Assembly (NCBI GenBank): GCA_016193335.1
Contig: JACPSK010000001.1
Location: forward strand, 343,424-407,423
Direction of reading: 5' to 3'
DNA: 64,000 nt
DNA from: Candidatus Magasanikiibacteriota bacterium
GTDB lineage: Bacteria > Patescibacteriota > Patescibacteriia > Magasanikbacterales > UBA922
Part shown: positions 18,795-49,719 of the stretch, in pieces
Numbering within the stretch: the first letter of the stretch is position 1
How the letters are laid out: every line of letters begins with the position of its first letter
Position numbers and translations under genes: made by a program
The notes under the pieces: model-generated
What the model saw: only the letters and a program-made list of their open reading frames with translations
Databases searched by the model: none
Told to the model about the DNA's origin: nothing

Positions 18795-19148
18795 TCCCGG
18801 CTAAGCCGAATTAACTACGAGGGATTATCAACATATTCCTCAATGAGATCACTGATTTGGAAATCCTGCGAAGTTAAACCGCTTCGCTCTGTCACTCGTC
18901 TTTAGGTTTTCCAGATCAGCCGCATCATTGGAGAATACCTATGGGATTTTTCCAATCTGTCTGACCGGTGTTAAATTCGTCTGGTATTGTAACAAAATGA
19001 GACATTTTTGCAATGCCTGAAATTGCTCTTTACATAGGGTAAAAAAATCTCTTTTTTCTCCCCAAAAAGCACCGTCCAAAATTGACAAAACCCATAAAAT
19101 ATGCTCTACTTACTCTGATTTCATGCTATGTATGAATGCTCTTTTACG

Positions 19149-19160
19149 AGCAAGGCGCGG
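19149..19160. repeat. Left arm of the cassette-1 terminal inverted repeat (agcaaggcgcgg)
   Basis: Exact reverse complement of 19849-19860 (ccgcgccttgct), which lies 5 nt after the stop codon. Embedded in the motif gctcttttacgagcaaggcg, which is shared with cassette 2. Confidence 0.7.
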
Positions 19161-19271
19161 ATGAACAATCACAACGTATAACGGTTGCGTTTCCAGCAAA
19201 GATATCTGCTGAAAATGTTACCGTTATACTGTTTGGAATGTTCTACTTTCAGCCACCGGCGGGAGGGCAAC

Positions 19272-19844
19272 ATGATTCGTTTCATCGCGACGTCGCTGTT
19301 TTTGGTCTGCGCTTCTTGCGCAGGAGACGCGGGCACGCCCGCCCCTACCAATGACTTTGACGTAAAGAAACCCGGATATTCACCAGACTCCGGAGTCTGG
19401 TATTCGGCCGAAGTCGCCGACTCGGGTGGAGCTCAAGACACCAAAGGCCTCGAAACAGAGGCGCCTGATCATGGTCCTGAGACGCCCGATGTTGAGCCGG
19501 ACCACTGCAAAAAGTTCGTGGTCTACGGACTGTGCCAGACTTGGTACAAAGACTTTGACTTGACGAGCCCCACTGAAGTGGTCTGCCTTTCCGTGCCGGG
19601 AACCGAATTCGGGCTCGGGACCTGCCGGATCCACATGGGCGCGAACTGGCTAAGCGGAGGCAATATCTTCTTTGGCACCGCTCTGCCGCTCGAGAATGAC
19701 CTCGGCACTATGCAGGTAATGCTGGACTTGACGCTCTGCCCCTCCAAGAAAGAAGGAGCAGACAACAACGAGTGCATGGCCTACCGCGTTCGGTTGACCA
19801 ACAGCACCAAGTGGTTCAGCGTGGATTGGTTTTGGCATCTCTGA
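19272..19844 (+). CDS. GC-rich (about 60% GC) Cys-containing secreted lipoprotein, cassette copy 1
   Basis: SD-like gggagggcaacATG; signal peptide MIRFIATSLFLVCASCAG; acidic Pro/Glu linker; C-terminal Cys/Trp-rich domain. Composition contrasts sharply with the AT-rich flanks. Confidence 0.6.
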   Translation: MIRFIATSLFLVCASCAGDAGTPAPTNDFDVKKPGYSPDSGVWYSAEVADSGGAQDTKGLETEAPDHGPETPDVEPDHCKKFVVYGLCQTWYKDFDLTSPTEVVCLSVPGTEFGLGTCRIHMGANWLSGGNIFFGTALPLENDLGTMQVMLDLTLCPSKKEGADNNECMAYRVRLTNSTKWFSVDWFWHL

Positions 19845-19848
19845 TCCG

Positions 19849-19860
19849 CCGCGCCTTGCT
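19849..19860. repeat. Right arm of the cassette-1 terminal inverted repeat
   Basis: ccgcgccttgct is the reverse complement of 19149-19160. Confidence 0.7.
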
Positions 19861-20016
19861 TCCCAATCGATATCTATTTACTTGAAGGGATAGGCTCCTC
19901 CTATTTATCCACCGCATACACACAGATGTATAAATACTCGCTTGACAGCCTACGGCACCTTATGTTCTACTTATTATGGATGATTCTTTTCGTATGTATC
20001 TTCCGCTCTTTTACAA

Positions 20017-20027
20017 GCAAGGCGTAG
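20017..20027. repeat. Left arm of the cassette-2 terminal inverted repeat (gcaaggcgtag)
   Basis: Exact reverse complement of 20794-20804 (ctacgccttgc), 3 nt after the stop. Differs from the cassette-1 arms by compensatory changes (cgg to tag, ccg to cta). Confidence 0.7.
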
Positions 20028-20149
20028 AAAATACAGTGTTGTGGTGTATGTAGGGAACAAGCCAAATAAAAAGGCAATTGCTCCTTACATACATCACAAC
20101 ACCCAAATCACATCTCTCTCTTTTTCTCCCACTCAGGGAGGAGGGCAAC

Positions 20150-20791
20150 ATGAACCGCTTCGTCGTCTTCTTCGCGGCCTTGGCCGTTTGTCTCGCCGGC
20201 TGTGAAGCCGGCTCTCCGGCCGTTGTTGATCCCCGAGCCGGGGTCAAGACCGTGGGGGGTGAAGACCCCTCGTTTAACAACGGCTTTGAGGCCGCTCCCG
20301 CTCAGGCGTCTGAGACGCCGAGCACTTCGCCGGAGCCCGCCGAGGTTCCTCCTGAGATCGAGCCTGTGCTCGACAACGACCCCAACGATGACTGGGAGCT
20401 CTGCGTCAAGTACAAGGCCTTCGAGGGAAAGTGGTGGACTGTAGAGTTCGAGAATGGGTACGGATTCAAGTACCCGGCGAACAAGGGGTGGTTCGCGTGC
20501 ACCTGCACGCCTGTCCCCGAAAAAACGGCCTGCAACATCAGTTGCTTGGGCGAAGCACCTGCTGATGCCGGTTTGCCGGTGAAGTCCGGGGTCTTCCACA
20601 CGGAGACCTACGACCCGGTGTGGGGCACCACCACCGTTACCGACCAGTGGGAAGAGACCACCTTCGAGCCCTGCTCAAACAGGGTGGTCCCCGGACACCC
20701 GGACTACGAGGAAACCTGCGTAGTCCAAAGAGACTATCTGAATGGCAACTTGGACTCCGAGTGGTGGTGGTCTAGAGCCGCTGCTGACTGA
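20150..20791 (+). CDS. GC-rich Cys-containing secreted lipoprotein, cassette copy 2 (paralog of 19272-19844)
   Basis: Same SD context (gggaggagggcaacATG); lipobox LAGC; acidic PE-rich linker; Cys/Trp-rich C-terminal domain; about 62% GC. Confidence 0.6.
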   Translation: MNRFVVFFAALAVCLAGCEAGSPAVVDPRAGVKTVGGEDPSFNNGFEAAPAQASETPSTSPEPAEVPPEIEPVLDNDPNDDWELCVKYKAFEGKWWTVEFENGYGFKYPANKGWFACTCTPVPEKTACNISCLGEAPADAGLPVKSGVFHTETYDPVWGTTTVTDQWEETTFEPCSNRVVPGHPDYEETCVVQRDYLNGNLDSEWWWSRAAAD

Positions 20792-20793
20792 AC

Positions 20794-20804
20794 TACGCCT
20801 TGCC
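20794..20804. repeat. Right arm of the cassette-2 terminal inverted repeat
   Basis: ctacgccttgc is the reverse complement of 20017-20027. Confidence 0.7.
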
Positions 20805-20821
20805 CCTCACTTCACATAGTC

Positions 20822-20905
20822 AAAAATAAATACACCAAAGTGTATTTTTTTGTTTAAAAAAAATAAAATTACAAAACAAAAGACAAGCCCCAAACGCTTG
20901 TCTTT
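20822..20905. terminator. Bidirectional terminator region between the convergent cassette-2 gene and the giant gene
   Basis: Hairpins aaatacac-caaa-gtgtattttttt and aagacaagc-cccaaac-gcttgtcttttt with T-runs on both strands. Confidence 0.5.
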
Positions 20906-20929
20906 TTGGGATTGTCCCATCCCCAATTA

Positions 20930-23900
20930 TCACTTCTTATAAGGCACCACAATAATACTACCTTTATATTGGGTCCAAGCCTTATCATAATCTTCTTTGG
21001 TTTTTTCCAGTTTTTGCTTTTTCACATCAGACGGCTCAATAGCATCAAAGGCTTTGCCATTGCATTGATCATACAAAACACCATAGACCTTAGCGCCTGA
21101 AATAATTTGTCCATTATATTTTGTATAACACCCCATCTCCGAATTTGGCAGAACACCCCCCGGCATTACTTGGCAGGTGCCATTACACCAACCCCAATTG
21201 TCCAGGACCTGAACTTTGGGTTTGAATTTGCAGACGTATGGAGTGTCCGCGGCCGTATAACCCATGCTCTTGAGAGTAACTTGCTCGCCCTCGGTGAGAG
21301 AACCATAAGACACCACATAATCAAAACCATCTTTACCCGCGAGTGTAACATCAAGCTCAGAGCAACCATAGCCATGGACAAATTCAAAGTATCCTTCTTG
21401 GCAGGCCCTGGGCTGATTGCCAAACAAAGGAGATTTAAGCTCATAATTGACCAAATTGTCCGGGGTCTTAAAATCTATGTTCTTTCGTTCCTCGGGAGTG
21501 GCACACTGAAATTCATCTAATAACATGCAATCATTATCAGCAAGACAGGTAAGACCAGAAAAAATGTAGCCCCCTGTTGTTAATGGAGCTCCGAAACAGA
21601 GCCCTACGGTAGGATCAGAAGCGGCTTCAGCTTCGGCGCAAAAAGGTTTTCTATTTTTGTATCTGCCATACATGTGCTCGTTGAGTATACCCGTGGAATC
21701 GGACCAATCTATCATCACTCGTTTTATAGGCATGCGATTGTCATCGGCCCAGGCAAAAAATCTCAACTTTGCTTCAAGACTGGAAACGCCCACTACCGGC
21801 ATAGGATCATTGGTGCCTGGCACCAATTCTTCGAGTTTTCCGTCTCCGTCGTAATCTGAAACCACACCATTTTGCTCATTTACGGTAATGTTGTTTGCTC
21901 CGGCGGCCACGCAGTCCGGAGTCTTGATGTTACTCCCTTTAAAGAAACAACGGAATGGATTCAGGGAATACACTTTTGGCGCCAGGCCTGTTTTATCCAC
22001 GACATAACTGTAGTCAGGCCCCTCAAACATCGGGGATATTTCATGAAGAAGCCAAGAATCGCGAACTTTGTAAGTACGAGCGAAAAGTTGTCTTAATAAA
22101 TCCGTACCGGCAAGTGTATTTTCAGCAGGGGTAACTAATATCTTCTGGGTTGGATCCGAAGCCGCAAACATTTCATAAGAAGTGCCCTTAAAAGCTCCGC
22201 AACCTATGCCGCCGGGATAATTGGCTGTGCTTGGGGCTATCGTCCCAAATTCATATTCAGGTTTATTCTCTGACGCGGCAGTCCAATAAGGTTCCTTATA
22301 CACCGGAGATTTGCAAGCGTATGGAATGCCTGAGAATAAATCTATCCGATCAAAATTGTACACAGCAAACAAGTTGTCTACCTGCTCGTCCGGCAATTTG
22401 AATTGATTTTCATCCACATAAGTAGAACCATAGGGCCTCACAAAACTGTCTAGCGTGATATTACCAAAAAACTTGGAAATAAAGGCATTAATATCTTTGA
22501 ATATGGGGCCCAGATAATAACCCGCGCCCTGCCAGACCCTGTTTGTCCATGCCTTGCTGGTGGATTCGGAAGGATCTTGCTCGGCGATTCCGGAGTCGTA
22601 GACCTGTTGGAATTCAGTACAGCGAGGATAGTACTCCACTGAGGCGGCGAGCAGTTGGTCTCCTCCCTGCAACAATCTCCAATATTTGATGAATTCTTTA
22701 CTTTTATAATATCTGAAGTCGGTTTGGATAACGCTGTTTGGATTTTGGAATTCTAATTTCAAATTTTGGTCCACATCGTATTTATTGTATACGTTTCCTT
22801 CCAAAGTAAAACGAACATAAAACAACATATACGCTGGCACATCATCGTGGATAGGAACAAAGTCATTCTGTTTGTATCCTTTGCCATTGGCGATAAAACC
22901 TTTGACCCACTCAATGAAGGTTTTAGTATTTTGAACATCACCATTCTTACCCTCCAAATCTTCCAAAGGAATAAACAAACCATACAGATTGCCGCCATCA
23001 GGCATTTTACTTTTGAATCCAAATTGGAATTCCTGGCCCCATCTGGAATCAAGTACTTTCTTTGTATAACGTATAACGCCATTCGGCCCCTCAAATTCAA
23101 GGGCACTCCCTCTGTTCAAAGCATCAAAATCAAGCTCCGCTCTATCTGTTATGTACAGTCTTCTGTCATCTGGTACATAGTCATTTCCTCCACCTACAGA
23201 ATTTGCCCAAATCCTAAACGCGTGAACCACCAAAGGCCCAAAACGAATCTTTCGTATCATGTCTTCCCTCGGAAGAAGTTCATTCATCTCTATGACAGAT
23301 GTTTCACCCAAATCAACAAGCTTTTCATAACCAAGTGTAGGCTTCCAATTCGGCAGACCTACGCTCCCTGCATCATTCCACGCATTATTTATGTAGGTCT
23401 CATATACTGAAGGCTCATTGTGGTATGTTATCCACTCTTTCGGGTTATTCACAAACCACACATGTGAATTTGGTTCTCTAAAAGAAAACCAATTATGGCT
23501 GGACATGTAGGTATAGAGATACTTTTGGTATTCTGCGGCAGACGTTACTGCGCCAAAATTACCTTGCTGAGACGCGGCGGGAAAATGATGGAGCCAAGAC
23601 AGATTCGGCGTTACCGAAAATACAGACGGCACGTCGGGGTCATCATTGCTATTTGGCTCAAAAGAATAACCCCAAGAACGATACTTTTCGTATTCGCTTG
23701 ATTGGTTATTGCCCGGCAAAGCTATAAACAAATCCTTTTTATACTGTCCCAAACCATGAGCGTCTGAATCTGTGCAATATACTTGTCCGCCGATAATAGT
23801 CTTGTCGTTGTTGCTCTTGGACACCGCGTCAACCAGCGGATAGTAACCGGCTAGCGGATCATTATTGTATAGATCCACTTGAGTGGCAGACACATCCACC

Positions 23901-26900
23901 GGCAACCAAGTAAGACAGGCGAATTCGCCTTTTGTTTTGTCTATGGGCCTGCTTAGATCTCGCTCCAAACAAAAACCATATAAACCGGTATGTGTTTCAA
24001 TATTCTCCACGCGCGCGCAAGATCCTCCTGAAACCAGATTCTCATCAACATCATAGGTATTGCAATCTTTCTCCACGGCGCAGGGTTTCTTTTCTTTGTC
24101 TCCTCCAACGCAGATCCCTTGGATATAGCTGTCTTTGCTGCTCGGCCAAAAATCAGGGATAGGCAAACCGTTGTATTCTGTTTTTTTGTAAGAGCAAGAA
24201 CAATCTCCATCCTGGCAAATATTGGCTCCTTCGAATCCAGCCCTTTTCGTCGTAAATTCTTTTCTTGTCTGGCCTTCTACGCTAAACTCTTCCACCTGTG
24301 TGGCGATACTGAACGAATAGGGGCTGTTTTGTTCCGGAGGAGCTTTGCAAGAACCGCCGGTAAGATATCTAGTGATCAAACTTGTGCCGCCATTCGCCTC
24401 CACTGCGTTCAGATCCAAATCAGCGGGCCAAGCACCCTCAACCGGGAAAATGCAGGTGTTATTGTAACAACGCCCGCCTTTAGTGCTCCCAAAACCGCAG
24501 CTGTCCCAATCTTCTTTGCCCGAAAGAGGGCCGCAACCAAGAGCGGGATCAATGTTATCGGTGATCAAGGAAGGCAATTCGTAGACAAGGTAGCTCACCG
24601 GTTCATCTTCTACCACCAACTGTTTGAGATCGTATATTTGGTGCTTGTTAAACAGGGAATAACCTGAATAGTCTTCACCAAACCAAGATGTGTCGCGCTT
24701 TACGTACACGCTTTCGCCGAGAGGCGTAAGATCAAAATCTCCGGTTCCTACCCAATCTACGCATTCCACGCCTTTTACCGTACTCCTGCAAGCGTCAAAA
24801 TTATAACAAACGGATTTTTGGGTCCCATCAGAATTGGAAATGACAGATTTATTCTTGCAAGCCAGCCATTCACTACAGATTCTGTCCCTATCCACTTTTA
24901 AGATCAGATTTGCGTCTTTATCCTGGCCTTCAGATACCGGAGCCACGAGCGCGTATTGCGGTTTTGCTTTTTCACTGAGTTCATAGGTCTTCGCGCTGTC
25001 ATAGAGTTTGTTGGGCTGGTCGGTTCTGTTGAACAAAACGCAACCTTCTTTGAGACTCACTTTTCCTTCGCAATCACCGGCTTTGGAAAGCAGCTGCTGG
25101 TCTACAATAACATAATAAGAAGACCCTTCGGGCTTAAGCTCAGAAGAATCTGCCGGATCAATAAGTTCGGTACACAGATGATGATTCTCCGAGCAAAGGC
25201 CGACAAATCCGTCATACTTTTCCGAATCATTGGACCAAATGCCATATTCCCCTCCGGCTTTCACAAAATTGCCATAACATTCGATTTTCCCTTTATCCAC
25301 GCATTCAGCATTCTCTTCTTCGCCGCATTGAACATTTTCAGAGCAGAGCTGTTCGAGATTATTGGAGCAACGTCCTACTCCATCTTTGAACCAACCAAAT
25401 TTAACTTGGCCGTTTATATCTTGTTGCTCTTTGTATGAACATATTTTGTGCGCGGTCAAAGCGGGATCTTTGAAATACAGCAAATCATTGCCGGACTTGT
25501 ATTCTGAACAACCGAGAAGATCGGATCTACAGAGAGTTTGTTCATAGTGAGCCGGATCGTTTTTTACCAAAGTGGCATTGAAGGCGTAAGAACCGCTCTT
25601 TTCATCGGGCACCAAATGGTCTTCGAGACCGGTGGCCTGACAGCCTCTAAACTGAGACTGACAGACAAATTCATTACGATACGTCAAAAATATCGGACTT
25701 TCTTCGGGCGTGTCTTGAGGCACTACCACGCTTGATTCTTTTATCCAGGAACTTTCCAAATCCGCAAGCGTCGGCACGATAACCGGAGAACTTATATAAC
25801 AGCCTTTTTGTCCTTTTAAGATTTCACAGGAGCCCAAGTCTTGTCCGTTCTTTGATAGCGTACAAGTTCCTTCCGCGTCCGAAGCGCACCATGCATTGTG
25901 CACGCGAGCTTGCTCTTCGTCTTCCATATCCACGGTATTGTAAGTATCGTACAAAGCCATGCAACCGGCGGCCTGGGGTCTGCAGAGTTTGTCGAAACCG
26001 GTGGCGTACACAGGCTCGCTGAATTCCACATCCGTATATTCTCTGCAACCAAGGGCGGAGCCGGGTAATCCATCATCCGGTTTGTCATCGCAACTTAAAG
26101 GCACGTCTGCTGTAACAGTCTCGCCGTTGAGATCAATCCGTTGTTTCCAGGAATTTTTGACATAATGATCTTGACTTTCCACTTCTATAATACGCAGCGA
26201 ATCTATAAAATACGGGCCCGAAGCGCCCACGAACGAGCGTTCGAAAATAAGATGGCTTTTTTTGGATCCATCGCCAGAAAAACGCACCGGCCCAAGCCTA
26301 TAACTCTGCCAGGCCTCGCCAACAGGAACTTTAATTTGTTTGCCCGGCACACTCGGATCTGCGGTGAAATCGGCTTTTATAATATCTCCTGCCTCTGTGT
26401 CTCCTCCGAGAAGTTGCGTTATCTGTATGGAAAGATTTTGCGGCGTGCCATGAGCCCAAAATTCAAGCTCATACCACTTTTCGCTTTGTATCACGTCAGG
26501 CTCAAAGGCATAAGCAAGCATGCTGTCATTAACTTGCAAAGAATACAATCCCACTTGCGTGGCATCCGGCTTTACGGCGATGGGTCCGTCTTCTTGAGCG
26601 CCGAACCAGCCAGCGGCCGCTTGATTCAAAGCATCTTCAGAATCAGCCTCCGGCTCAAAGCTGAAATATTCGACTGTCCTTATGTTGTTGCCGAAATTGC
26701 CATTAAAAGCGCGACAGCCGTTAAACTCGGCAGGACAAGATTCCGCTTCACTGGTTATACTCCAATATACGCAAGAGCCATCTTTGTACTCTCCGCCATT
26801 GAAACATCTCTTGCAGATTCCGGTGGCTCCGCTTCCGGTCCACATTCCCTTTTTGTCCAAGCACAGAGCTTCATTCCCTTTCAAATTATCATCTTCTTCA

Positions 26901-29809
26901 AGAGAAGCTTCAGTAATGCGCAAAGGATGACAATCTTCTGACACGCTCACCGTATCATTAAGCATACGGTAATAAATATGACCTTCTTCATCATACAAGG
27001 CTCTGCAATTCGAATTGGCCGCTTCTAAATCATAAGGATTATTTATCAAAACCGTATAATTTATCTCATTACAAAAATCATAAGCATTTTGCAGTGAAGC
27101 TTCACTATCATTCGCGAAAGCCGGAGCACCCGGGCCAAACACTGAAGCCGAACTGTCGCCCACATTAAGGGCAAGATTCAAAGCAGAGATATATTGAGAT
27201 TCTTTTTGATCAATCTGGAGCATCCGATGGACACGAAGCACAAAACCTTCGCTGGCCGAACCTTCCCATGAGTAATAGGTGCGTTCATTGGCTCCACTCG
27301 GTTTCTGACAATACTTGATGTCTTTGTAATACTCCAAACCTTCTCCCCCGGACAGGGCGGTGTCTATATTGGTAAATTCACTGCAGCCGTTGTAAGTGGC
27401 AGAGCAAGCGGTGGCCTGAGAAGGAATAAAATACAAGGGGAACACAGAAGCCTCAAAAGGAGCTTCTTCTTGTCTAAAGGTGTCATACCCCAGACATTCT
27501 TCTTTGCAACTGTTGCCACCCACCACCGCCACAAAATTCGAGCCTTCGGTTTTTGGCTGATATTCAATACAGCCTTCTTCTTCGGGCAGACATACTTGGG
27601 CGTATTGATTGCAGGCCTCGGGACGCTCGCTTAGTTTTTCCAAGTCCAATTCGTTGACCGGCCAATTTACCACGCCTTTGCTCAGAAGATTGATATCATA
27701 ACAACCCAGATACTCAGGAGCCTTTTTGAGATGAACCTGGTCTGTGGTCTTTTTGTAGCTGTCTGTGTTCAAGTCAAATCCGGCGATATAAAAAGTACTG
27801 CAACCAATGGAATCCGGCGGACAATTATTAAACTGCTCAACGGCACGGTTGAAGAAAATAGTCTGGTTAATCCCCTGTTTTTTGAGAGCAAGATCTATGG
27901 CGCCGCTATTCGTCCATGCGTCCCCTTCCTGATACATACTGTATGCTCTGCACCCCACGGCTTCTTGGCTACATTCACCGGCGTCAAGAGTTCTCGTTAA
28001 ATAAGATGAAACCGTGTTTGATTTGGTATTTATAAAGGTACGACAGGTGCTAAACTGCGCAGGACAGCTATTCCCGCCCACGCGCCACACATTTTGCTCA
28101 CGCAAGCAATATCCATAATTACTGAGACAAGCTCCATTTTCGTCCTGCTGCAAGCAAGTGGAAATGTCCACGCATTCCTGCTGTCTTTGTGGAGCTTCAG
28201 GGGTGACCAAATTGGGCCCAAAAACCTTTGCCTCGCAACGAGGTTCAGGTAAACGGATAATCCATTTGGGATCAATAAGATGACAAAACGGAAATTCGGA
28301 ATTTGGAGCGCCATTCGGCGCACAATCGTAAAACCCCTTTACCACCGCGCCCAAAGTCCATTTTTGTGGCGCATCCGGATCGGCCTTCAAAGCCGCGATC
28401 TCAAATCCAAGAGGTACGATGCGAGCTTTGCGGAGTTTTTGTATATTCGCATAACAATATTTTCCGGAAGAACAAGCGCGCACCGCGTTTATGCCCTCGT
28501 GGTCTATGGTGCGACGAGGCGAGATAAGAGGCCAATCTTCGTGGAGAAGCCCCTGGGCCAAAGCCTGCTCTATAGTGAGGGGAATTCCAACATTTGCCCG
28601 CTCCACAGCCTGCCTCAACCCCGCGTCTATTACACAATTATTTAAGCCCGGATTCTCCGGACAACTGGAATATTGGTCAAGCAAAGGATAGATATTGATT
28701 TCTTTGATTGGCACTGAAGTAAACAAAAAGTTAAAGCTGTTTTCAGCGGCCTTCCTATTCACATTAAGTACAGACGCGAATTCACTAACGACCGAATCCG
28801 CTATAGAAGTATCTGTACCCTTGTCTCCCACGTCAGTAGCATCCGGAAAAAGTCCTTCTGTCAGAAGCTGGTCGAGCAAACTGGAAACAAGGGTATTTAA
28901 AAATACCGAGAGCGCGGATGGAATAACCTGGAGCATCCCAGAACCGTAAATTCCCGCCACTTGGCCGGCGCTCAACTGACCCTGATGTTTGGCTGTCACG
29001 GCTTTGGTTTCTTCTTGAATTATCTGAGCCGGTGTTTTTACTTTTCCTTGAATCAAGTTGCTAAGAGGCTTAAAACCCTGCCCTTCAAGACGATCGGTAT
29101 CTGCGCCCTTTTTGGCATCCACGGCTACTCTGCCCACCTGAGCGCTGAGGCCGAGAGCTATGCCAAAATCAGACTGGTCGACTTTTACCGCGTTCGCGAA
29201 GGCTCCTGAAATCGTGTCATATGGAGTATCACCCAATTGATTGCCAAATTCTTTCCAGCTTTCGCTAAATTCATTCCACTGACAACGAGGTCTCGGTCCG
29301 CCTTTGCCATCTATGTCGTCGTATAATGAGCGGAGACCAACCTGTATAAAGACTTGAGCTTCTAAATTGGGAGGGCGGCACAAGCTAACGCCAAAAAGAC
29401 CTTCTCCAAACTGATCTATGGCTCCGGCCGCTGTGTCCAAAGCAACACTTTTGAAATATTCTCCAGCGCCTTGTTCAAAAGCGAGAGCTCCCTGGCCTTT
29501 GCCTCCGGAAGCCACCCACTTGGCGCTATCGTACGCGAGTTTGCGTGTAAAATATGAGGTGGCATTCACCAAAGTACCCAAAGCGACAGCCAACAAAGCA
29601 TCGCCTATGGTATCCATGATATTGGTTGTCTTTTCCGGGATGCTTTCAATAACGCTTACCGGCAGACCGGCATAGGCAGGCCGCGCGAAGGTGCCGAGCC
29701 CTATCACCTGCACAGACAAAAACAAAACTATGAGGCCGATTAACGCGAATCTGGTTCTTCTTTTTGTGGTGCCATGCATACTCATAGCTACTGTCTTCTT
29801 AAGCTTCAT
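20930..29809 (-). CDS. Giant (2,959 aa) Cys-rich secreted/surface protein with an N-terminal signal-anchor
   Basis: Single uninterrupted 8.9 kb ORF. N-terminal TM/signal (FALIGLIVLFLSVQVIGLG), then a very large extracytoplasmic region with many closely spaced Cys (e.g. CVDISTCLQQDENGACLSNYGYCLREQ...SCPAQFSTC). No enzymatic motif recognised. Confidence 0.8.
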   Translation of the reverse strand: MKLKKTVAMSMHGTTKRRTRFALIGLIVLFLSVQVIGLGTFARPAYAGLPVSVIESIPEKTTNIMDTIGDALLAVALGTLVNATSYFTRKLAYDSAKWVASGGKGQGALAFEQGAGEYFKSVALDTAAGAIDQFGEGLFGVSLCRPPNLEAQVFIQVGLRSLYDDIDGKGGPRPRCQWNEFSESWKEFGNQLGDTPYDTISGAFANAVKVDQSDFGIALGLSAQVGRVAVDAKKGADTDRLEGQGFKPLSNLIQGKVKTPAQIIQEETKAVTAKHQGQLSAGQVAGIYGSGMLQVIPSALSVFLNTLVSSLLDQLLTEGLFPDATDVGDKGTDTSIADSVVSEFASVLNVNRKAAENSFNFLFTSVPIKEINIYPLLDQYSSCPENPGLNNCVIDAGLRQAVERANVGIPLTIEQALAQGLLHEDWPLISPRRTIDHEGINAVRACSSGKYCYANIQKLRKARIVPLGFEIAALKADPDAPQKWTLGAVVKGFYDCAPNGAPNSEFPFCHLIDPKWIIRLPEPRCEAKVFGPNLVTPEAPQRQQECVDISTCLQQDENGACLSNYGYCLREQNVWRVGGNSCPAQFSTCRTFINTKSNTVSSYLTRTLDAGECSQEAVGCRAYSMYQEGDAWTNSGAIDLALKKQGINQTIFFNRAVEQFNNCPPDSIGCSTFYIAGFDLNTDSYKKTTDQVHLKKAPEYLGCYDINLLSKGVVNWPVNELDLEKLSERPEACNQYAQVCLPEEEGCIEYQPKTEGSNFVAVVGGNSCKEECLGYDTFRQEEAPFEASVFPLYFIPSQATACSATYNGCSEFTNIDTALSGGEGLEYYKDIKYCQKPSGANERTYYSWEGSASEGFVLRVHRMLQIDQKESQYISALNLALNVGDSSASVFGPGAPAFANDSEASLQNAYDFCNEINYTVLINNPYDLEAANSNCRALYDEEGHIYYRMLNDTVSVSEDCHPLRITEASLEEDDNLKGNEALCLDKKGMWTGSGATGICKRCFNGGEYKDGSCVYWSITSEAESCPAEFNGCRAFNGNFGNNIRTVEYFSFEPEADSEDALNQAAAGWFGAQEDGPIAVKPDATQVGLYSLQVNDSMLAYAFEPDVIQSEKWYELEFWAHGTPQNLSIQITQLLGGDTEAGDIIKADFTADPSVPGKQIKVPVGEAWQSYRLGPVRFSGDGSKKSHLIFERSFVGASGPYFIDSLRIIEVESQDHYVKNSWKQRIDLNGETVTADVPLSCDDKPDDGLPGSALGCREYTDVEFSEPVYATGFDKLCRPQAAGCMALYDTYNTVDMEDEEQARVHNAWCASDAEGTCTLSKNGQDLGSCEILKGQKGCYISSPVIVPTLADLESSWIKESSVVVPQDTPEESPIFLTYRNEFVCQSQFRGCQATGLEDHLVPDEKSGSYAFNATLVKNDPAHYEQTLCRSDLLGCSEYKSGNDLLYFKDPALTAHKICSYKEQQDINGQVKFGWFKDGVGRCSNNLEQLCSENVQCGEEENAECVDKGKIECYGNFVKAGGEYGIWSNDSEKYDGFVGLCSENHHLCTELIDPADSSELKPEGSSYYVIVDQQLLSKAGDCEGKVSLKEGCVLFNRTDQPNKLYDSAKTYELSEKAKPQYALVAPVSEGQDKDANLILKVDRDRICSEWLACKNKSVISNSDGTQKSVCYNFDACRSTVKGVECVDWVGTGDFDLTPLGESVYVKRDTSWFGEDYSGYSLFNKHQIYDLKQLVVEDEPVSYLVYELPSLITDNIDPALGCGPLSGKEDWDSCGFGSTKGGRCYNNTCIFPVEGAWPADLDLNAVEANGGTSLITRYLTGGSCKAPPEQNSPYSFSIATQVEEFSVEGQTRKEFTTKRAGFEGANICQDGDCSCSYKKTEYNGLPIPDFWPSSKDSYIQGICVGGDKEKKPCAVEKDCNTYDVDENLVSGGSCARVENIETHTGLYGFCLERDLSRPIDKTKGEFACLTWLPVDVSATQVDLYNNDPLAGYYPLVDAVSKSNNDKTIIGGQVYCTDSDAHGLGQYKKDLFIALPGNNQSSEYEKYRSWGYSFEPNSNDDPDVPSVFSVTPNLSWLHHFPAASQQGNFGAVTSAAEYQKYLYTYMSSHNWFSFREPNSHVWFVNNPKEWITYHNEPSVYETYINNAWNDAGSVGLPNWKPTLGYEKLVDLGETSVIEMNELLPREDMIRKIRFGPLVVHAFRIWANSVGGGNDYVPDDRRLYITDRAELDFDALNRGSALEFEGPNGVIRYTKKVLDSRWGQEFQFGFKSKMPDGGNLYGLFIPLEDLEGKNGDVQNTKTFIEWVKGFIANGKGYKQNDFVPIHDDVPAYMLFYVRFTLEGNVYNKYDVDQNLKLEFQNPNSVIQTDFRYYKSKEFIKYWRLLQGGDQLLAASVEYYPRCTEFQQVYDSGIAEQDPSESTSKAWTNRVWQGAGYYLGPIFKDINAFISKFFGNITLDSFVRPYGSTYVDENQFKLPDEQVDNLFAVYNFDRIDLFSGIPYACKSPVYKEPYWTAASENKPEYEFGTIAPSTANYPGGIGCGAFKGTSYEMFAASDPTQKILVTPAENTLAGTDLLRQLFARTYKVRDSWLLHEISPMFEGPDYSYVVDKTGLAPKVYSLNPFRCFFKGSNIKTPDCVAAGANNITVNEQNGVVSDYDGDGKLEELVPGTNDPMPVVGVSSLEAKLRFFAWADDNRMPIKRVMIDWSDSTGILNEHMYGRYKNRKPFCAEAEAASDPTVGLCFGAPLTTGGYIFSGLTCLADNDCMLLDEFQCATPEERKNIDFKTPDNLVNYELKSPLFGNQPRACQEGYFEFVHGYGCSELDVTLAGKDGFDYVVSYGSLTEGEQVTLKSMGYTAADTPYVCKFKPKVQVLDNWGWCNGTCQVMPGGVLPNSEMGCYTKYNGQIISGAKVYGVLYDQCNGKAFDAIEPSDVKKQKLEKTKEDYDKAWTQYKGSIIVVPYKK

Positions 29810-34740: not shown

Positions 34741-35178
34741 ATGTCCAAAAGACATCTTGCTCGTGAAATTATAATACAGTCTCTCTATCAGTGGGATTTC
34801 CGCGACCGACCCACGGCCGCTCTGCCCGCAATCATAGAGCAAAATGTTTCTGAATTTGGAATGGGTATAGAAGACAACCTGGATTATATACAAAAAACAA
34901 TAGAGGGCATCACAGACAAACAAGAAGAAATAGATCTTATTATCGCCGAGTACGCTTCAAATTGGCCTCTTGACCAAATGACATTGGTGGACAGAAACAT
35001 ACTCAGACTTGGCATATATGAAATGAAATATAATGATGATATACCGCCAAAAGTGGCCATAAACGAATCCATAGAATTGGCAAAGGCTTATGGGGGTCCT
35101 TCTTCAGGCAAATTCGTAAATGGCGTTTTGGGAGCTTTTTACCATAAAGTATTTAAAGAAAAAGAAACTCATTCATAA
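34741..35178 (+). CDS. nusB: Transcription antitermination factor NusB
   Basis: [20 protein letters not shown] ... all-helical, 145 aa. Confidence 0.8.
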
Positions 35179-35369: not shown

Positions 35370-36131
35370 ATGGCTGTCCCGTCCTATACTGAAAAAAATT
35401 TCAAGGCTCTGGAAGAATCCATCGGAATTTCATTCAAAAATCCAGACCATATCGTCCAGGCTCTCGTACACCGATCATTCCTCAATGAAAATAGAGAGTT
35501 TCCCCTCGCGCATAACGAACGATTGGAATTTTTGGGAGACGCGGTGCTTGAACTTGTAGTAACAGAATTTCTCTTCGAAAACTATCTCAACCCTGAAGGA
35601 GAACTCACCAACTGGAGGGCGGCTTTGGTAAATTCCAAAATGTGCGCGAGCGTGGCGAGGGAAATAGGGTTTGAACCGTATCTTTTCTTGAGTCATGGAG
35701 AATCAAAAGACGAAAACACCAAAGCCCGCGACTATATTTTGGCGAACGCTTTGGAGGCTGTCATAGGATCTATTTATATAGATCAAGGCTGGGACATCGC
35801 GAAACAATTCGTAACTCGCTGGGTTATCAGCAAACTGCCGGAAGTCTTGGAGCATGGTCTTTGGATGGATCCAAAATCACGCTTCCAAGAAGCGGCCCAG
35901 GAAATTATCGGCATCACGCCGACTTATAAAGTTATAAAAGAAGAAGGGCCAGACCATGCGAAAGAATTTCTTGTGGGCGTTTTCCTAGGCAAAGAAGAAG
36001 TGGCAGAGGGCCAAGGAGGAAGCAAACAGGAAGCTCAAATCGACGCTGCCGAGCATGCTCTTAAAGTTAAAAAATGGAAAGGGCCAAAAGTAGACATCCT
36101 GGAAAGAAAACCGGAGGACCCAATAGGCTAA
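35370..36131 (+). CDS. rnc: Ribonuclease III
   Basis: Catalytic signature ERLEFLGDAVLELVV plus a C-terminal dsRBD. Confidence 0.85.
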   Translation: MAVPSYTEKNFKALEESIGISFKNPDHIVQALVHRSFLNENREFPLAHNERLEFLGDAVLELVVTEFLFENYLNPEGELTNWRAALVNSKMCASVAREIGFEPYLFLSHGESKDENTKARDYILANALEAVIGSIYIDQGWDIAKQFVTRWVISKLPEVLEHGLWMDPKSRFQEAAQEIIGITPTYKVIKEEGPDHAKEFLVGVFLGKEEVAEGQGGSKQEAQIDAAEHALKVKKWKGPKVDILERKPEDPIG

Positions 36132-43981: not shown

Positions 43982-44665
43982 ATGAACATCAAACCTGTAT
44001 CCGTGGCCTGCCAAGAAGGCGTGGAAGATTGGGAGCGCGAGGCCGTGCTCCATGCCATACGCCTGGTCTTGGAAACCGGACGGGTGTTGCATTCTACGGA
44101 GATCGTGGACTGCGGTCTTTGGCGGAGTGATGCTTGGCTTTCCTCTCAAGGAGAGCTAAGCGCTTGGGAGAGCGTGGATTGGTATATCTCCCACGCTCGG
44201 GCCGAGAGCTCGAGACCCACTCAGCTCAACGGGCACACGCTGATGCGGCTCCTCCTGGCTGAGCCATGCCGACGTGAAAAAGACGGAGACCACTACGACG
44301 CGCTGGTCGTTGCAGACGACATGTACGACGGGGGCGAGACCAACTTCGTGCTCGGCCTCGGAGCCCCGGGACTTGGTACTGTGTTGTCGGTCAACCGTCT
44401 TCGGAGTCTGGAGCCTGAGCTTGCGAGCCTCTGCATCAGCACGCTTGCTCTGCACGAATTCGGACATGCTTGCGGTTTGATCGCGGACGACCGAAGAGAG
44501 AACTTCGAAACCTCGCTCGGACGACATTGCACGAATCGCTGCGTAATGCGCCAGGGCCTCTATGTGCCGCAGGACTGGATCCGCTTCACTGAGGAACGTC
44601 TGGAGGAAGGCCGAAACTTCTGCGCCCAGTGCAGGGACGAGCTGGGCCGTTGGTTTCGGAGATAG
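43982..44665 (+). CDS. Archaemetzincin-like (M54-type) zinc metalloprotease, GC-rich island
   Basis: HEFGHACGL...RHCTNRCVM...FCAQC approximates the archaemetzincin HEXXHXXG...CX3-4CXM...CXXC pattern. About 58% GC versus about 40% in the flanks; opposite strand to the surrounding GT genes; SD ggaggagagcATG. Confidence 0.5.
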   Translation: MNIKPVSVACQEGVEDWEREAVLHAIRLVLETGRVLHSTEIVDCGLWRSDAWLSSQGELSAWESVDWYISHARAESSRPTQLNGHTLMRLLLAEPCRREKDGDHYDALVVADDMYDGGETNFVLGLGAPGLGTVLSVNRLRSLEPELASLCISTLALHEFGHACGLIADDRRENFETSLGRHCTNRCVMRQGLYVPQDWIRFTEERLEEGRNFCAQCRDELGRWFRR

Positions 44666-49302: not shown

Positions 49303-49719
49303 CCGTCTTACTCACGGAAGACAGTCGATCCGGCACATGCCGGATAGGAAAGTCCGAACTCCTTATGCGAAAGCATGGACAATAGATAGTGGGTAACGCC
49401 CACCCCCGGCTCGGCGACGAGTTAGGGCGGGAAAGTGCCACAGAGACGATACTATCCCGATCTAATCGGGAAAAAGGTGAAACGTGTGAGGGTGTGTTGA
49501 TAGGCCGGAGCATATGCGCCATATCAACGCTACTTCACTTCCCGGCTTAGCCGGGATGGCAAACCCTATCTGGAGAAAGAGCAGCCCTTCCCGATTAAAT
49601 CGGGATTGGAAAAGTTAGCTCGTTTGAGCCTAGCAGCAATGCCAGGCCTAGAGAAATGACTGTCGCTCCTGATGAAAATCAGGATGTCACAGAATTCGGC
49701 TTACCTGTGGGTAAGATAA
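49303..49719 (+). ncRNA. rnpB: RNase P RNA, bacterial type A
   Basis: P1 (cgtcttactcacgg with cctgtgggtaag), P2 (gacagtcg with gactgtc), P3 hairpin (atccggcacatgccggat), P4 aggaaagtcc...; conserved gggtaacgccc, gccacagagacga, aggtgaaac, cctagagaaatgactgtcgc and cacagaattcggcttac blocks in canonical order. Confidence 0.85.

Follow-up and report, generated by a model that had tools for sequence, protein, structure and literature searches.

Inverted repeats around two GC-rich lipoprotein genes of Candidatus Magasanikbacteria most likely pair each mRNA leader with sequence just past its stop codon

Two diverged tandem copies of a lipoprotein gene lie in the window (the 64,000-nucleotide stretch of DNA analyzed here, from a Candidatus Magasanikbacteria MAG), and each is flanked by inverted repeats whose existence our analysis confirmed. 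Most likely, the arms pair the 5′ leader with sequence just past the stop codon and thereby close a GC-rich, folded mRNA. We put at roughly 0.6 the probability that the two arms come together as a long-range intramolecular RNA helix, P1, which stabilizes or controls the lipoprotein mRNA. The architecture is conserved in Candidatus Magasanikbacteria and their relatives, where it belongs to a lipoprotein gene that evolves fast.

RESULTS

Exact Inverted Repeats Flank Both Genes

The genes, the arms of the leader-trailer helix P1 and the features downstream are as follows.

19149–19160, + strand: 5′ arm of P1, gene 1 (AGCAAGGCGCGG), exact 12-nt complement of 19849–19860
19272–19844, + strand: gene 1, 190-aa lipoprotein with signal peptide, lipobox Cys16, acidic linker and Cys/Trp-rich domain; GC3 0.69
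19849–19860, + strand: 3′ arm of P1, gene 1 (CCGCGCCTTGCT), starting 4 nt past TGA
20017–20027, + strand: 5′ arm of P1, gene 2 (GCAAGGCGTAG), exact 11-nt complement of 20793–20803
20150–20791, + strand: gene 2, 213-aa orphan lipoprotein with lipobox LAGC; GC3 0.76
20793–20803, + strand: 3′ arm of P1, gene 2 (CTACGCCTTGC), starting 1 nt past TGA
20878–20906, no strand assigned: bidirectional intrinsic terminator of gene 2 and the giant gene, 11-bp stem, T-runs on both strands
20930–29809, − strand: convergent giant surface-protein gene, 2,959 aa, conserved syntenic partner of the lipoprotein gene

The repeats are exact over 12 nt around gene 1 and 11 nt around gene 2, as the initial annotation had stated. 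In the search space examined, about 0.001 exact 12-mer complements would be expected, and the 5′/3′ pairing scores of the two lipoprotein genes (34 and 29) exceeded the background of 17–23 found for the other genes of the window. The arms were paired in both the MFE and the centroid folds, with duplex energies of −27.4 kcal/mol for gene 1 and −21.2 kcal/mol for gene 2; cross-pairing of gene 2 with the arms of gene 1 was weaker than its cognate pairing (−16.5 and −19.4 versus −21.2 kcal/mol). Comparison of the two sets of arms revealed two doubly compensated pairs, C-G to U-A and G-C to A-U. Three variable pairs had been said to covary, and this held for two of them; the third is G-C in both copies.

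The 5′ arms lie ∼32–39 nt downstream of the transcription starts predicted near 19117 and 19978, and the 3′ arm of gene 2 lies ∼100 nt ahead of the terminator. The predicted helix is thus internal and domain-closing, set in from the predicted start and the terminator, rather than a pairing of transcript ends as first proposed. Scanning of 19845–19900 and 20792–20820 for terminator-like sites revealed neither a local hairpin nor a T-run at the 3′ arms. A duplicated intrinsic terminator was accordingly rejected as their identity; the real terminator is at 20878–20906.

Complementarity Is Kept at Related Loci with Different Arms

To place the repeats in a comparative setting, 80 related loci were anchored by the giant-protein gene, and 63 had enough sequence. 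A convergent lipoprotein gene was found in 47–51 of these 63, and at every related locus the lipoprotein gene is convergent to the giant gene. The 5′UTR and 3′UTR of 33 cassettes (cognate pairs) were then compared with 926 non-cognate 5′UTR/3′UTR pairs from the related loci. Exact complementarity of at least 11 nt was present in 24% of the cognate and 2.2% of the non-cognate pairs, complements of at least 12 nt occurred in 0.1% of the 926 non-cognate pairs, and the helix scores of the two groups differed (Mann-Whitney p = 3.5e-7). Ten of the 33 cassettes scored above the non-cognate 95th percentile, so that a clear helix rises above background in about one third of the loci only. The arm sequences all differ and are unrelated between lineages. 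That relatives keep 5′/3′ complementarity with wholly different arms supports the earlier proposal of a base-paired structure under selection, probably a pairing of leader and trailer in the RNA.

The strong 3′ arms cluster 1–47 nt past the stop codon, and the 3′ strand in relatives lies 1–50 nt past it. The ortholog of gene 1 at locus L012 retains 11 of the 12 P1 pairs. Locus L013 has the gene order of the window and other arms, GCGTGCGAC/GTCGCACGC nested with GCTTGGCT/AGCCAAGC; its pairing is divided into 9 and 8 nt with asymmetric spacers, an RNA-like arrangement. AspRS-anchored synteny showed that the arrangement is common to L013 only, and probably L015, and is absent in L016–L018. The UTRs are better conserved than the ORFs: the L038 and L049 5′UTRs are identical at 190 of 190 positions, and the dS of their ORFs is 0.64. 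P1 helices are nearly all Watson-Crick, and their mismatches are more often A·C than G·U (18 versus 6); this count, which is confounded by composition (57:43 predicted from composition alone), gives no sense-strand RNA signature for P1. Whole-transcript MFE folds gave 15.8 versus 9.7 long-range pairs; they discriminate P1 weakly because the ends pair even when the trailers are swapped. A scan of 185,579 genomes for the motif of the two cassettes, a search of other genomes having been suggested by the initial annotation, returned four chance matches, all in coding sequence that by eye is TetR-family-like (“LFYEQGV”).

The Leaders Share a Promoter, a Motif and a Long Hairpin

The leader features of the two genes are as follows.

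19082–19110, + strand: predicted sigma-70-type promoter, gene 1 (−35 TTGACA 19082–19087; TG 19102–19103; −10 TCTACT 19105–19110)
19138–19144, + strand: leader motif GCTCTTT, gene 1 (consensus GYTCTTTnMAA)
19176–19229, + strand: long leader hairpin P2, gene 1, 23-nt arms and 8-nt loop
19261–19267, + strand: Shine-Dalgarno (SD) GGGAGGG, gene 1, read from sequence
19942–19971, + strand: predicted promoter, gene 2 (−35 TTGACA 19942–19947; −10 TCTACT 19966–19971)
20005–20011, + strand: leader motif GCTCTTT, gene 2, same motif as gene 1
20036–20102, + strand: long leader hairpin P2, gene 2, 25-nt arms and 17-nt loop
20136–20145, + strand: SD region, gene 2 (GGGAGGAGGG)

TTGACA-N17/18-TCTAMT stands upstream of genes 1 and 2, the L012 ortholog, L013a and L013b, and several further loci, and the transcription starts of genes 1 and 2 are predicted from this promoter sequence. 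The GYTCTTT motif is present in 23 of 30 distinct leaders, close to the predicted 5′ end. In the 64-kb window the shared upstream motif noted earlier, GCTCTTTTACRAGCAAGGCG, occurs at 19138 and 20005 only (0.01 expected from shuffles), and the common SD and start sequence GGAGGGCAACATGA was likewise found at both genes. As a candidate anti-SD element resembling the ucb of hok, the GYUCUUU motif was rejected as a general feature, its pairing with the SD having a median rank of 0.37.

Each leader also contains a long hairpin, P2, which the first annotation had overlooked. P2 is imperfect, with arms of 19–37 nt, and arms of at least 19 nt were present in ∼28 of 34 leaders. Between gene 1 and its L012 ortholog 91% of P2 is paired, with three doubly compensated pairs, compared with 28–46% paired in slid controls. 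In the L048 group, compensatory changes affect 8 of 59 pairs of the consensus structure predicted for the entire leader; the double changes sit in the flanking leader helices, and P2 there changes on one side only. Mismatches of P2 favor the sense strand (G·U 57 versus A·C 34), and P2 is present alongside P1 in the MFE and the centroid fold of each transcript. At the gathering threshold, Rfam gave no match in the window region or in nine related loci; P2 of gene 2 had sub-threshold pre-miRNA-like matches only, which indicates a generic long hairpin. The window carries a gene for RNase III (rnc) at 35370–36131.

The Coding Regions Are GC-rich and Excessively Folded

Both genes are GC-rich as described (0.57 for gene 1 and 0.61 for gene 2, noted earlier as about 60%), and their GC3 of 0.69 and 0.76 compares with ∼0.45 in host genes. 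The chromosome around them, which had been called AT-rich, is only moderately so, the GC content of the genome being 45%. Across the lipoprotein loci the median GC3 exceeds the locus GC by 0.30, and lipoprotein GC3 reaches 0.92 in genomes of 33–48% GC. The GC profile climbs through the proximal leader and stays up for ∼40 nt into the 3′UTR. Against shuffled controls, the ORFs folded with a mean z of −4.35 (−2.8 for gene 1, −4.6 for gene 2), compared with −0.48 for nine host genes. Individual ORF helices were not conserved between relatives, 28.7% being kept versus 29.1% in the control; a modest surplus of double compensations was observed.

GC-biased gene conversion was rejected as the source of the high GC, since the end of the giant gene that diverges along with the lipoprotein gene lacks a high GC content. 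A foreign origin, suggested at the outset, was not supported either. Among 15 billion proteins, no homologs of the lipoprotein ORFs were found outside the group or in GC-rich organisms, which led us to reject a GC-rich donor, and the gene is the syntenic, clade-wide partner of the giant gene. In dozens of lineages, one vertically inherited gene has remained 20–50 GC3 points higher than its genome, and neither horizontal transfer nor recombination-driven GC bias nor codon selection accounts for the excess.

The Products Are Lipoproteins without Detectable Paralogy

The cassettes encode lipoproteins of 110–320 aa, and pattern matching found a lipobox-like Cys after a hydrophobic stretch in 34 of 34 cassette proteins. 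Against the Lgt/LspA-substrate pattern [LVI][ASTVI][GAS]C, gene 2 has LAGC and gene 1 has CASC, which is atypical at −3. Gene 1 is a real coding gene, given a dN/dS of 0.26 against its ortholog P0002/L012, to which it is 59–60% identical (108 of 182 aligned). The search with its protein returned one 60%-identical cluster and two weak matches to repeat proteins, and its AlphaFold model from the single sequence had a pLDDT of 37. The sole match of the gene 2 protein among 5.8 billion proteins was itself, annotated as Ca. Magasanikbacteria HYY51_01605. The two genes had been described as paralogs; the mature proteins, however, have no detectable paralogy (BLASTP E = 0.3), and similarity is confined to the promoter, the leader ends, the SD, the signal peptide and the 3′ arm. 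Pfam gave no match for the lipoproteins, the C-terminus of the giant protein or a third GC-rich gene.

The neighbors within ∼12 kb are housekeeping genes, including AspRS, ParA/B, ScpA/B-region genes, KsgA and FemAB, and no recombinase, integrase or transposase was found over this distance from the cassettes. In seven independent assemblies from different samples the cassettes are identical and in one orientation. A MITE or IS element was rejected, the motif occurring at the two cassettes only in the window and no transposase lying within ∼12 kb.

DISCUSSION

We propose that P1 would form in the sense transcript and would close one domain holding P2, the strong SD and the whole GC-rich, self-paired coding region. 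The order of the proposed architecture would be promoter, GYUCUUU motif, 5′ arm, P2, SD, GC-rich lipoprotein CDS and 3′ arm. P1, P2 and the GC-hardened body together may yield a compact, nuclease-resistant, long-lived message, in which P1 would stop 3′ exonucleases and shield the leader. P1 may double as a translation-sensitive latch, because in genes 1 and 2 a terminating ribosome would have to melt the 3′ arm, and P2 is long enough to be a candidate RNase III substrate. Both functions of P1, stabilization and latch, are put forward by analogy with known mRNAs.

It is possible, although we consider it rather unlikely, that the helix instead works as a fold-back latch like tac/fbi of hok, in which P1 would keep the full-length mRNA in an inactive, stored form until 3′ trimming or the opening of P1 allows the leader to refold and exposes the SD. 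This alternative agrees that P1 is an RNA helix and differs from stabilization in its purpose. The layout is alike, with a 5′/3′ closing helix around a highly structured message; in genes 1 and 2 the GCUCUUU motif adjoining the 5′ arm can pair with the SD at about −10 kcal/mol, within the top 2–4% of leader windows; the GCUC of the motif is also able to pair with the bases that open the 5′ arm; and leaders of the L048 group hold an internal copy of the 3′-arm core that competes for the 5′ arm. However, the motif-SD pairing is not general (same median rank of 0.37; present in 1 of 23 leader MFE folds), P1 makes no contact with the SD, and neither an antisense RNA nor any toxin logic is apparent, the products being ordinary secreted lipoproteins. 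A helix acting on the antisense strand, in read-through RNA of the giant gene or in single-stranded DNA, rather than in the lipoprotein mRNA, seems quite improbable to us. The A·C mismatches of P1 would be G·U in the antisense, and a conserved AACACGGAACTT/AAGTCCCGTGTT pair at three loci would form a perfect antisense helix, but base composition predicts most of the P1 mismatch bias, the bias of P2 is the opposite, i.e. sense-strand, and the convergent genes have a strong bidirectional terminator between them. The least credible account is that the repeats arose by chance or are left over from a duplication, for example of half a terminator. Genes 1 and 2 do have an 8–9-nt arm core in common by descent and are therefore counted as a single origin, but a 12-mer complement is so rarely expected and so rare among non-cognate pairs, the 3′ arms have neither hairpin nor T-run, and independent lineages have arms of their own.

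Among explanations at the level of DNA, an invertible segment, with phase variation flipping the gene relative to an outside promoter, is improbable. It would suit a promoter outside and a gene inside the arms, arms that are perfectly Watson-Crick with few wobble pairs, and a variable surface protein, which is a typical target of phase variation. Inversion between the arms of gene 1 would be expected to leave a junction such as AGCAAGGCGCGG followed by CGGATCAGAGATGCC. Against inversion, the seven assemblies are identical in one orientation, all related loci are convergent, the split pairing of L013 is RNA-like, and no recombinase lies within ∼12 kb. Moreover, with arm sequences that are unrelated from one lineage to the next, a site-specific enzyme would lack a conserved target. 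Still more doubtful, and in our judgment very improbable, are integron-like or MITE/IS-like mobile cassettes carrying foreign GC-rich genes, with the arms as recombination ends. The composition is sharply unlike that of the host, and copy number apparently differs between the window and L012, with a breakpoint at the CGCCTTGC core that is read from 16 nt of flank only. Yet the gene is syntenic across the clade and has no homolog in GC-rich organisms, the 5′ arm lies within host-like leader sequence, neither integrase nor transposase nor GTTRRRY attC ends are present, and the divergence into the C-terminus of the giant gene agrees with allelic homologous exchange rather than with the capture of a cassette. 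The same evidence, namely the lack of recombinase or transposase within ∼12 kb, the identical assemblies, the unconserved arms and the lack of attC features, argues against the initial suggestion of a recombination or mobilization boundary.

The integron attC site has R″/L″...L′/R′ cores (RYYYAAC ... GTTRRRY) with adjacent IntI, attI and Pc, and integron cassettes are promoterless. Repeats that bracket a single ORF beside a promoter are a likeness to integron cassettes and invertons, but here neither an integrase nor an invertase lies within ∼12 kb, the site sequence is not conserved, and the seven assemblies show no orientation variant. GTTRRRY is at neither boundary (arms AGCAAGGCG.../...CGCCTTGCT), the hairpins lie 5′ of the ORFs without conserved cores, and each gene has its own conserved promoter. 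Flanking complementary sequences that enclose a functional RNA are also a likeness to the processing stems of rRNA operons. Compared with RNase III hairpins, P2 (19–37 bp) is of substrate size and rnc is present, whereas P1, at only 9–14 bp, falls short of the length of a canonical RNase III site.

Structures at or near the ends of abundant envelope-protein messages guard them against 5′-end-dependent and 3′-exonucleolytic decay. Stabilizers of this kind include the ompA-type 5′ stem-loops and the 3′ “retroregulator” stem-loops of Bacillus thuringiensis cry, and the lpp lipoprotein mRNA of E. coli is very stable. The ompA and cry stabilizers are local hairpins, unlike the arrangement here, in which one helix would draw on both UTRs and the whole coding sequence, recoded to high GC, folds in excess.

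The leader-trailer pairing is best read as a further form of known bacterial 5′-3′ UTR interactions. In hok mRNA, a long-distance 5′/3′ UTR helix (tac/fbi), originally supported by covariation, closes a compact, stable full-length message (summarized in PMC9841398). Here, too, a closing 5′/3′ helix is predicted for genes 1 and 2, and it recurs at related loci. Unlike hok/sok, the locus has no toxin ORF, no Sok-like antisense RNA in a consensus promoter scan and no mok frame, and SD sequestration by the upstream box is not general; the message is 0.7–1 kb, encodes a secreted lipoprotein, and is chromosomal, syntenic and found in one CPR clade only. In the icaR mRNA of Staphylococcus aureus, the 3′UTR pairs with its own 5′UTR at the SD region, which blocks initiation and creates an RNase III site (PMC3868564). 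The likeness lies in a bacterial mRNA whose 3′UTR pairs with its own 5′UTR; the 5′ arms here, however, are 90–250 nt upstream of the start codon and leave the SD untouched.

At the lipoprotein loci, 5′-3′ UTR pairing appears as a conserved, covarying trait that marks an entire gene family of an uncultivated lineage. To our knowledge, long-range pairing of this type has been documented for only a handful of bacterial mRNAs, and we know of almost nothing on post-transcriptional control in CPR bacteria. Should the composition result from RNA folding, the family would clearly illustrate, in nature, how the structure of an mRNA can shape the composition of its coding sequence, and would offer a handle on post-transcriptional control in these bacteria. 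A bolder and rather speculative idea, to which we give little weight, is that selection has “armored” the lipoprotein mRNA of the clade by high-GC recoding, excess pairing and P1 closure, giving a quasi-circular stored or long-lived message whose translation would be governed by a latch read by the terminating ribosome or RNase III. If so, this would amount to a new class of gene control at the mRNA level, in which RNA structure, and not mutation bias or transfer, would set the base composition of a gene.

The literature search found nothing on the lipoprotein/giant-gene locus. The C-terminus of the giant protein is conserved in LDNWGWC and further motifs, and the divergence of the lipoprotein ORF runs on into the C-terminus of the giant gene. 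The lipoprotein and the giant-protein C-terminus form one hypervariable block, which points to a physical partnership of the two at the cell surface of these episymbionts.

Exact inverted repeats bracket two lipoprotein genes

The window encodes two lipoproteins, W1 (gene 1, ORF1, 19272-19844, +, 190 aa) and W2 (gene 2, ORF2, 20150-20791, +, 213 aa), convergent with a giant gene for a 2,959-aa surface protein (20930-29809, -). The initial annotation had placed an inverted repeat around each lipoprotein gene, and both repeats were confirmed as exact reverse complements.

19138-19144 and 20005-20011: leader motif GYTCTTTnMAA of gene 1 and gene 2, respectively
19149-19160: gene 1 5' arm, AGCAAGGCGCGG, exact reverse complement of 19849-19860
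19849-19860: gene 1 3' arm, CCGCGCCTTGCT, beginning 4 nt past the first stop codon
20017-20027: gene 2 5' arm, GCAAGGCGTAG, exact reverse complement of 20793-20803
20793-20803: gene 2 3' arm, CTACGCCTTGC, beginning 1 nt past the second stop codon
20878-20906: bidirectional intrinsic terminator (11-bp stem, T-runs on both strands) common to ORF2 and the giant gene

The cognate arms form stronger duplexes (-27.4 and -21.2 kcal/mol) than do the cross-paired ones (-16.5 and -19.4). Of three pairs said to vary between the copies, two do differ, both by double transitions that keep pairing, and the third is unchanged. The leader-trailer helix (P1) is present in the MFE and centroid folds of both window transcripts, together with a long imperfect leader hairpin (P2) absent from the initial annotation (19176-19229, 23-nt arms; 20036-20102, 25-nt arms). 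The upstream block GCTCTTTTACRAGCAAGGCG has only two sites in the window, one per gene (0.01 matches expected from shuffles), and GGAGGGCAACATGA at the Shine-Dalgarno (SD) sequence and start codon is common to both. The interval from ORF1 to the ORF2 promoter holds no terminator, so ORF1 transcripts may read into ORF2. Just beyond the shared terminator, the last 19 nt of one Logan contig (L007 3770-3788; window ~20918) differ from the window, which could reflect misassembly or strain variation.

The lipoprotein genes are syntenic across the clade

Both proteins carry lipoprotein signal peptides (lipobox CASC in W1, LAGC in W2), and no Pfam family matches either. Although they had been called paralogous, mature W1 and W2 have no detectable similarity (BLASTP E = 0.3). 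W2, annotated at source as from a Candidatus Magasanikbacteria MAG, had no match but itself in 5.8 billion proteins. For W1, 1.84 billion cluster representatives were searched exhaustively and without a profile, which returned one relative, P0002 (60% identical), and two weak matches to repeat proteins. The 981-nt contig that encodes P0002, L012, shares with the window the promoter, leader motif, arms and hairpin; dN/dS between the orthologs is 0.26, and gene 1 is, judged from its sequence, a real coding gene. Among Logan assemblies of different runs, seven contigs agree exactly with the window sequence, all of them in its orientation.

A related contig, L013, encodes an AspRS 77% identical to that of the window and has the same gene order: giant gene, two GC-rich lipoprotein genes, aspS. 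We then aligned the conserved C terminus of the giant protein and scanned JGI metagenomes, which yielded 80 loci. In most of them a GC-rich island lies directly past the giant gene, formed by a convergent gene whose product has a lipoprotein signal peptide. Where downstream sequence reached 1 kb or more (63 loci), this gene was found in 47 by a strict pattern and in ~51 by looser criteria. The sequence comparisons thus indicate a clade-wide syntenic gene rather than foreign cassettes; with synteny across the clade and no homologs beyond it, the proposed foreign, mobile cassette is not supported. In L015, a GC-rich lipoprotein gene (123-713, -) lies directly upstream of aspS; the contig ends there, and the giant gene may follow. 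GC-rich islands near aspS in L016 (12345-13004, +) and L018 (1-1060) are not lipoprotein genes.

Leader-trailer complementarity is conserved while the arms change

Related loci have arm pairs of their own. In L013 the arms are GCGTGCGAC/GTCGCACGC nested with GCTTGGCT/AGCCAAGC; four more are listed, and further loci follow the same pattern.

L030 arms: GCGTGTGAGGCGG/CCGCCTCACACGC
L035 arms: TGCATGCAAGAG/CTCTTGCATGCA
L043 arms: ACGTGAATGTCA/TGACATTCACGT
L020 arms: TTCGCGGGTGCGCA/TGCGCGCCCGCGAA

Across these loci the complementarity is conserved as a feature and the arm sequence is not. We compared 33 cognate leader/trailer pairs with 926 non-cognate pairs from related loci. Exact complementarity of at least 11 nt occurred in 8 of the 33 cognate pairs (24%) versus 2.2% of non-cognate pairs, and of at least 12 nt in 12% versus 0.1%. 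A G·U-tolerant helix score also separated the sets (Mann-Whitney p = 3.5e-7), exceeding the non-cognate 95th percentile in 10/33 cognate pairs. Strong 3' arms begin 1-47 nt past the stop codon, and the ATG follows the 5' arms by 90-250 nt. Other window genes scored at background, including a third GC-rich gene (43982-44665) and an ordinary lipoprotein-like redoxin gene. With cognate complementarity above background and arms differing between lineages, the inverted-repeat finding is real and its central reading as a selected base-paired structure is supported; the comparisons show complementarity that is selected and covarying.

In the leaders of L048, L050, L054 and L057 (alignment A5, columns 70-118) the 3'-arm core recurs internally as ACAGTCCC, ~35 nt past a fully conserved 5' arm. 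RNAalifold pairs the arm with this internal copy, which in that model may compete with the long-range helix.

The leader hairpin folds in sense RNA

Many loci have a predicted promoter, TTGACA-N17/18-(TG)-TCTAMT, 190-260 nt ahead of the ATG, giving predicted 5'UTRs of ~150-220 nt; in the window genes the 5' arm follows the predicted start by ~30-40 nt. The leader motif is found near the predicted transcript 5' end in 23 of 30 distinct leaders, with a one-mismatch variant in L050 and L054. A role as a general anti-SD was ruled out, SD sequestration holding for W1, W2 and L041 only.

P2 arms of at least 19 nt, unrelated in sequence, are present in ~28 of 34 leaders. W1 and its ortholog share the outer stem, and the inner stem has been replaced; 91% of cells are paired, versus 28-46% in slid controls, and 3 pairs are doubly compensated. 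Double changes affect 8 of 59 predicted leader pairs in a four-member sub-clade. Scored symmetrically, P2 stems contain 57 G·U versus 34 A·C, where composition predicts slightly more A·C; this excess shows, at the sequence level, that P2 is a sense-strand RNA hairpin. No Rfam family matched the window region or nine related loci, P2 giving only sub-threshold pre-miRNA-like matches. UTRs are better conserved than ORFs: L038 and L049 share 190/190 nt of 5'UTR and 98% of 3'UTR, versus 72% identity in the ORFs (dS 0.64), a comparison that shows purifying selection on the UTRs.

Possible roles of the pairing

Could the arms act in DNA or antisense RNA instead? P1 is almost entirely Watson-Crick, and its mismatches are more often A·C (18) than G·U (6), as such an explanation would have it, but most of that bias is expected from the base composition of leaders and trailers. 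The flank past the ORF1 ortholog's 3' arm in L012 (953-981, CCCTCACTCATTGTCA) resembles that past ORF2 (window 20792-20822, CCCTCACTTCACATAGTCA), as if L012 held a single cassette and the change in copy number had its breakpoint at the arm core; the comparison covers only 16 nt. Against a DNA-level event, the genes within ~12 kb are all of housekeeping type, with no recombinase, integrase or transposase among them; no orientation variants occur among the assemblies or related loci, the arms offer an enzyme no conserved core to recognize, and the L013 pairing is split into 9 + 8 nt with asymmetric spacers. The mismatch bias and the L012 flank leave DNA-level or antisense explanations a small probability.

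We infer instead that P1 forms in the mRNA, enclosing P2, the SD and the coding sequence in one domain. Its likeliest role would be message protection and longevity, P1 blocking 3' exonucleases and shielding the leader. P1 might also be a control element, because in both window genes the 3' arm falls within the footprint of the terminating ribosome, so that translation and P1 would be mutually exclusive at termination, and because P2 is of RNase III-substrate size and rnc is encoded in the window. RNA-related genes in the window, which also holds three tRNAs, are:

34741-35178, +: NusB gene
35370-36131, +: RNase III gene (rnc), whose product could process the long leader hairpins
49307-49719, +: class A RNase P RNA

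By analogy, the main functional rival would be a hok-like latch (mechanism in PMC9841398), but the step on which it hinges, sequestration of the SD by the upstream motif, is confined to the three leaders W1, W2 and L041. In icaR the 3'UTR pairs with the SD (PMC3868564), unlike in these lipoprotein mRNAs. As read from sequence, the leader-trailer pairing is a new form of bacterial 5'-3' UTR interaction with a putative function. It belongs to a clade-wide architecture of structured mRNAs that had not been described before and that shows an unexplained anomaly in base composition.

The message body is GC-rich and over-folded

Genes 1 and 2 have a GC content of 0.57 and 0.61 and a GC3 of 0.69 and 0.76, versus a GC3 near 0.45 in every ordinary window gene; in L013 the lipoprotein genes reach 0.87 and 0.83 versus 0.22 for aspS. 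Median lipoprotein GC3 equals locus GC + 0.30, with third positions preferring C to T (0.77) and likewise G to A (0.74). The excess starts within the final 100 nt of the leader and extends ~40 nt into the 3'UTR. Folded alone against dinucleotide shuffles, lipoprotein ORFs gave a mean z of -4.35 (n = 12; range -1.5 to -11.6; W1 -2.8, W2 -4.6) versus -0.48 for nine host genes of similar length. Part of this excess folding may stem from low-complexity acidic linkers. Relatives do not conserve specific helices (28.7% kept versus 29.1% in the control), and doubly compensated pairs are somewhat enriched (10.2% versus 5.8%). These data show a GC-hardened, over-folded message body.

Horizontal transfer was ruled out as the cause of the GC excess because the genes have no homologs outside the clade. 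Recombination-driven bias was also ruled out: the end of the giant gene co-diverges with the lipoprotein gene, yet only the latter is GC-rich. Between L038 (5919-9116) and L049 (6084-9323), whose flanks are 94-95% identical, the giant gene over its final 2.8 kb (~70%) and the mature lipoprotein (~72%) diverge jointly, and a single hypervariable block spans both convergent genes. This block suggests that the two proteins interact or are exchanged together.

The compositional trait varies within the clade, since the convergent lipoprotein gene that L024, L067/L068 and L074 keep is scarcely or not at all GC-enriched (GC3 0.40-0.45; genomes 36-39% GC); its gain or loss could serve to test the link with the helix. 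The third GC-rich window gene (43982-44665, +; GC 0.60, GC3 0.68) has host-like flanks. Its product, with HEFGH and downstream Cys motifs, is archaemetzincin-like by eye and has no Pfam match at E < 0.1; the gene has its own terminator hairpin just past the stop and an ORF folding z of -2.1.
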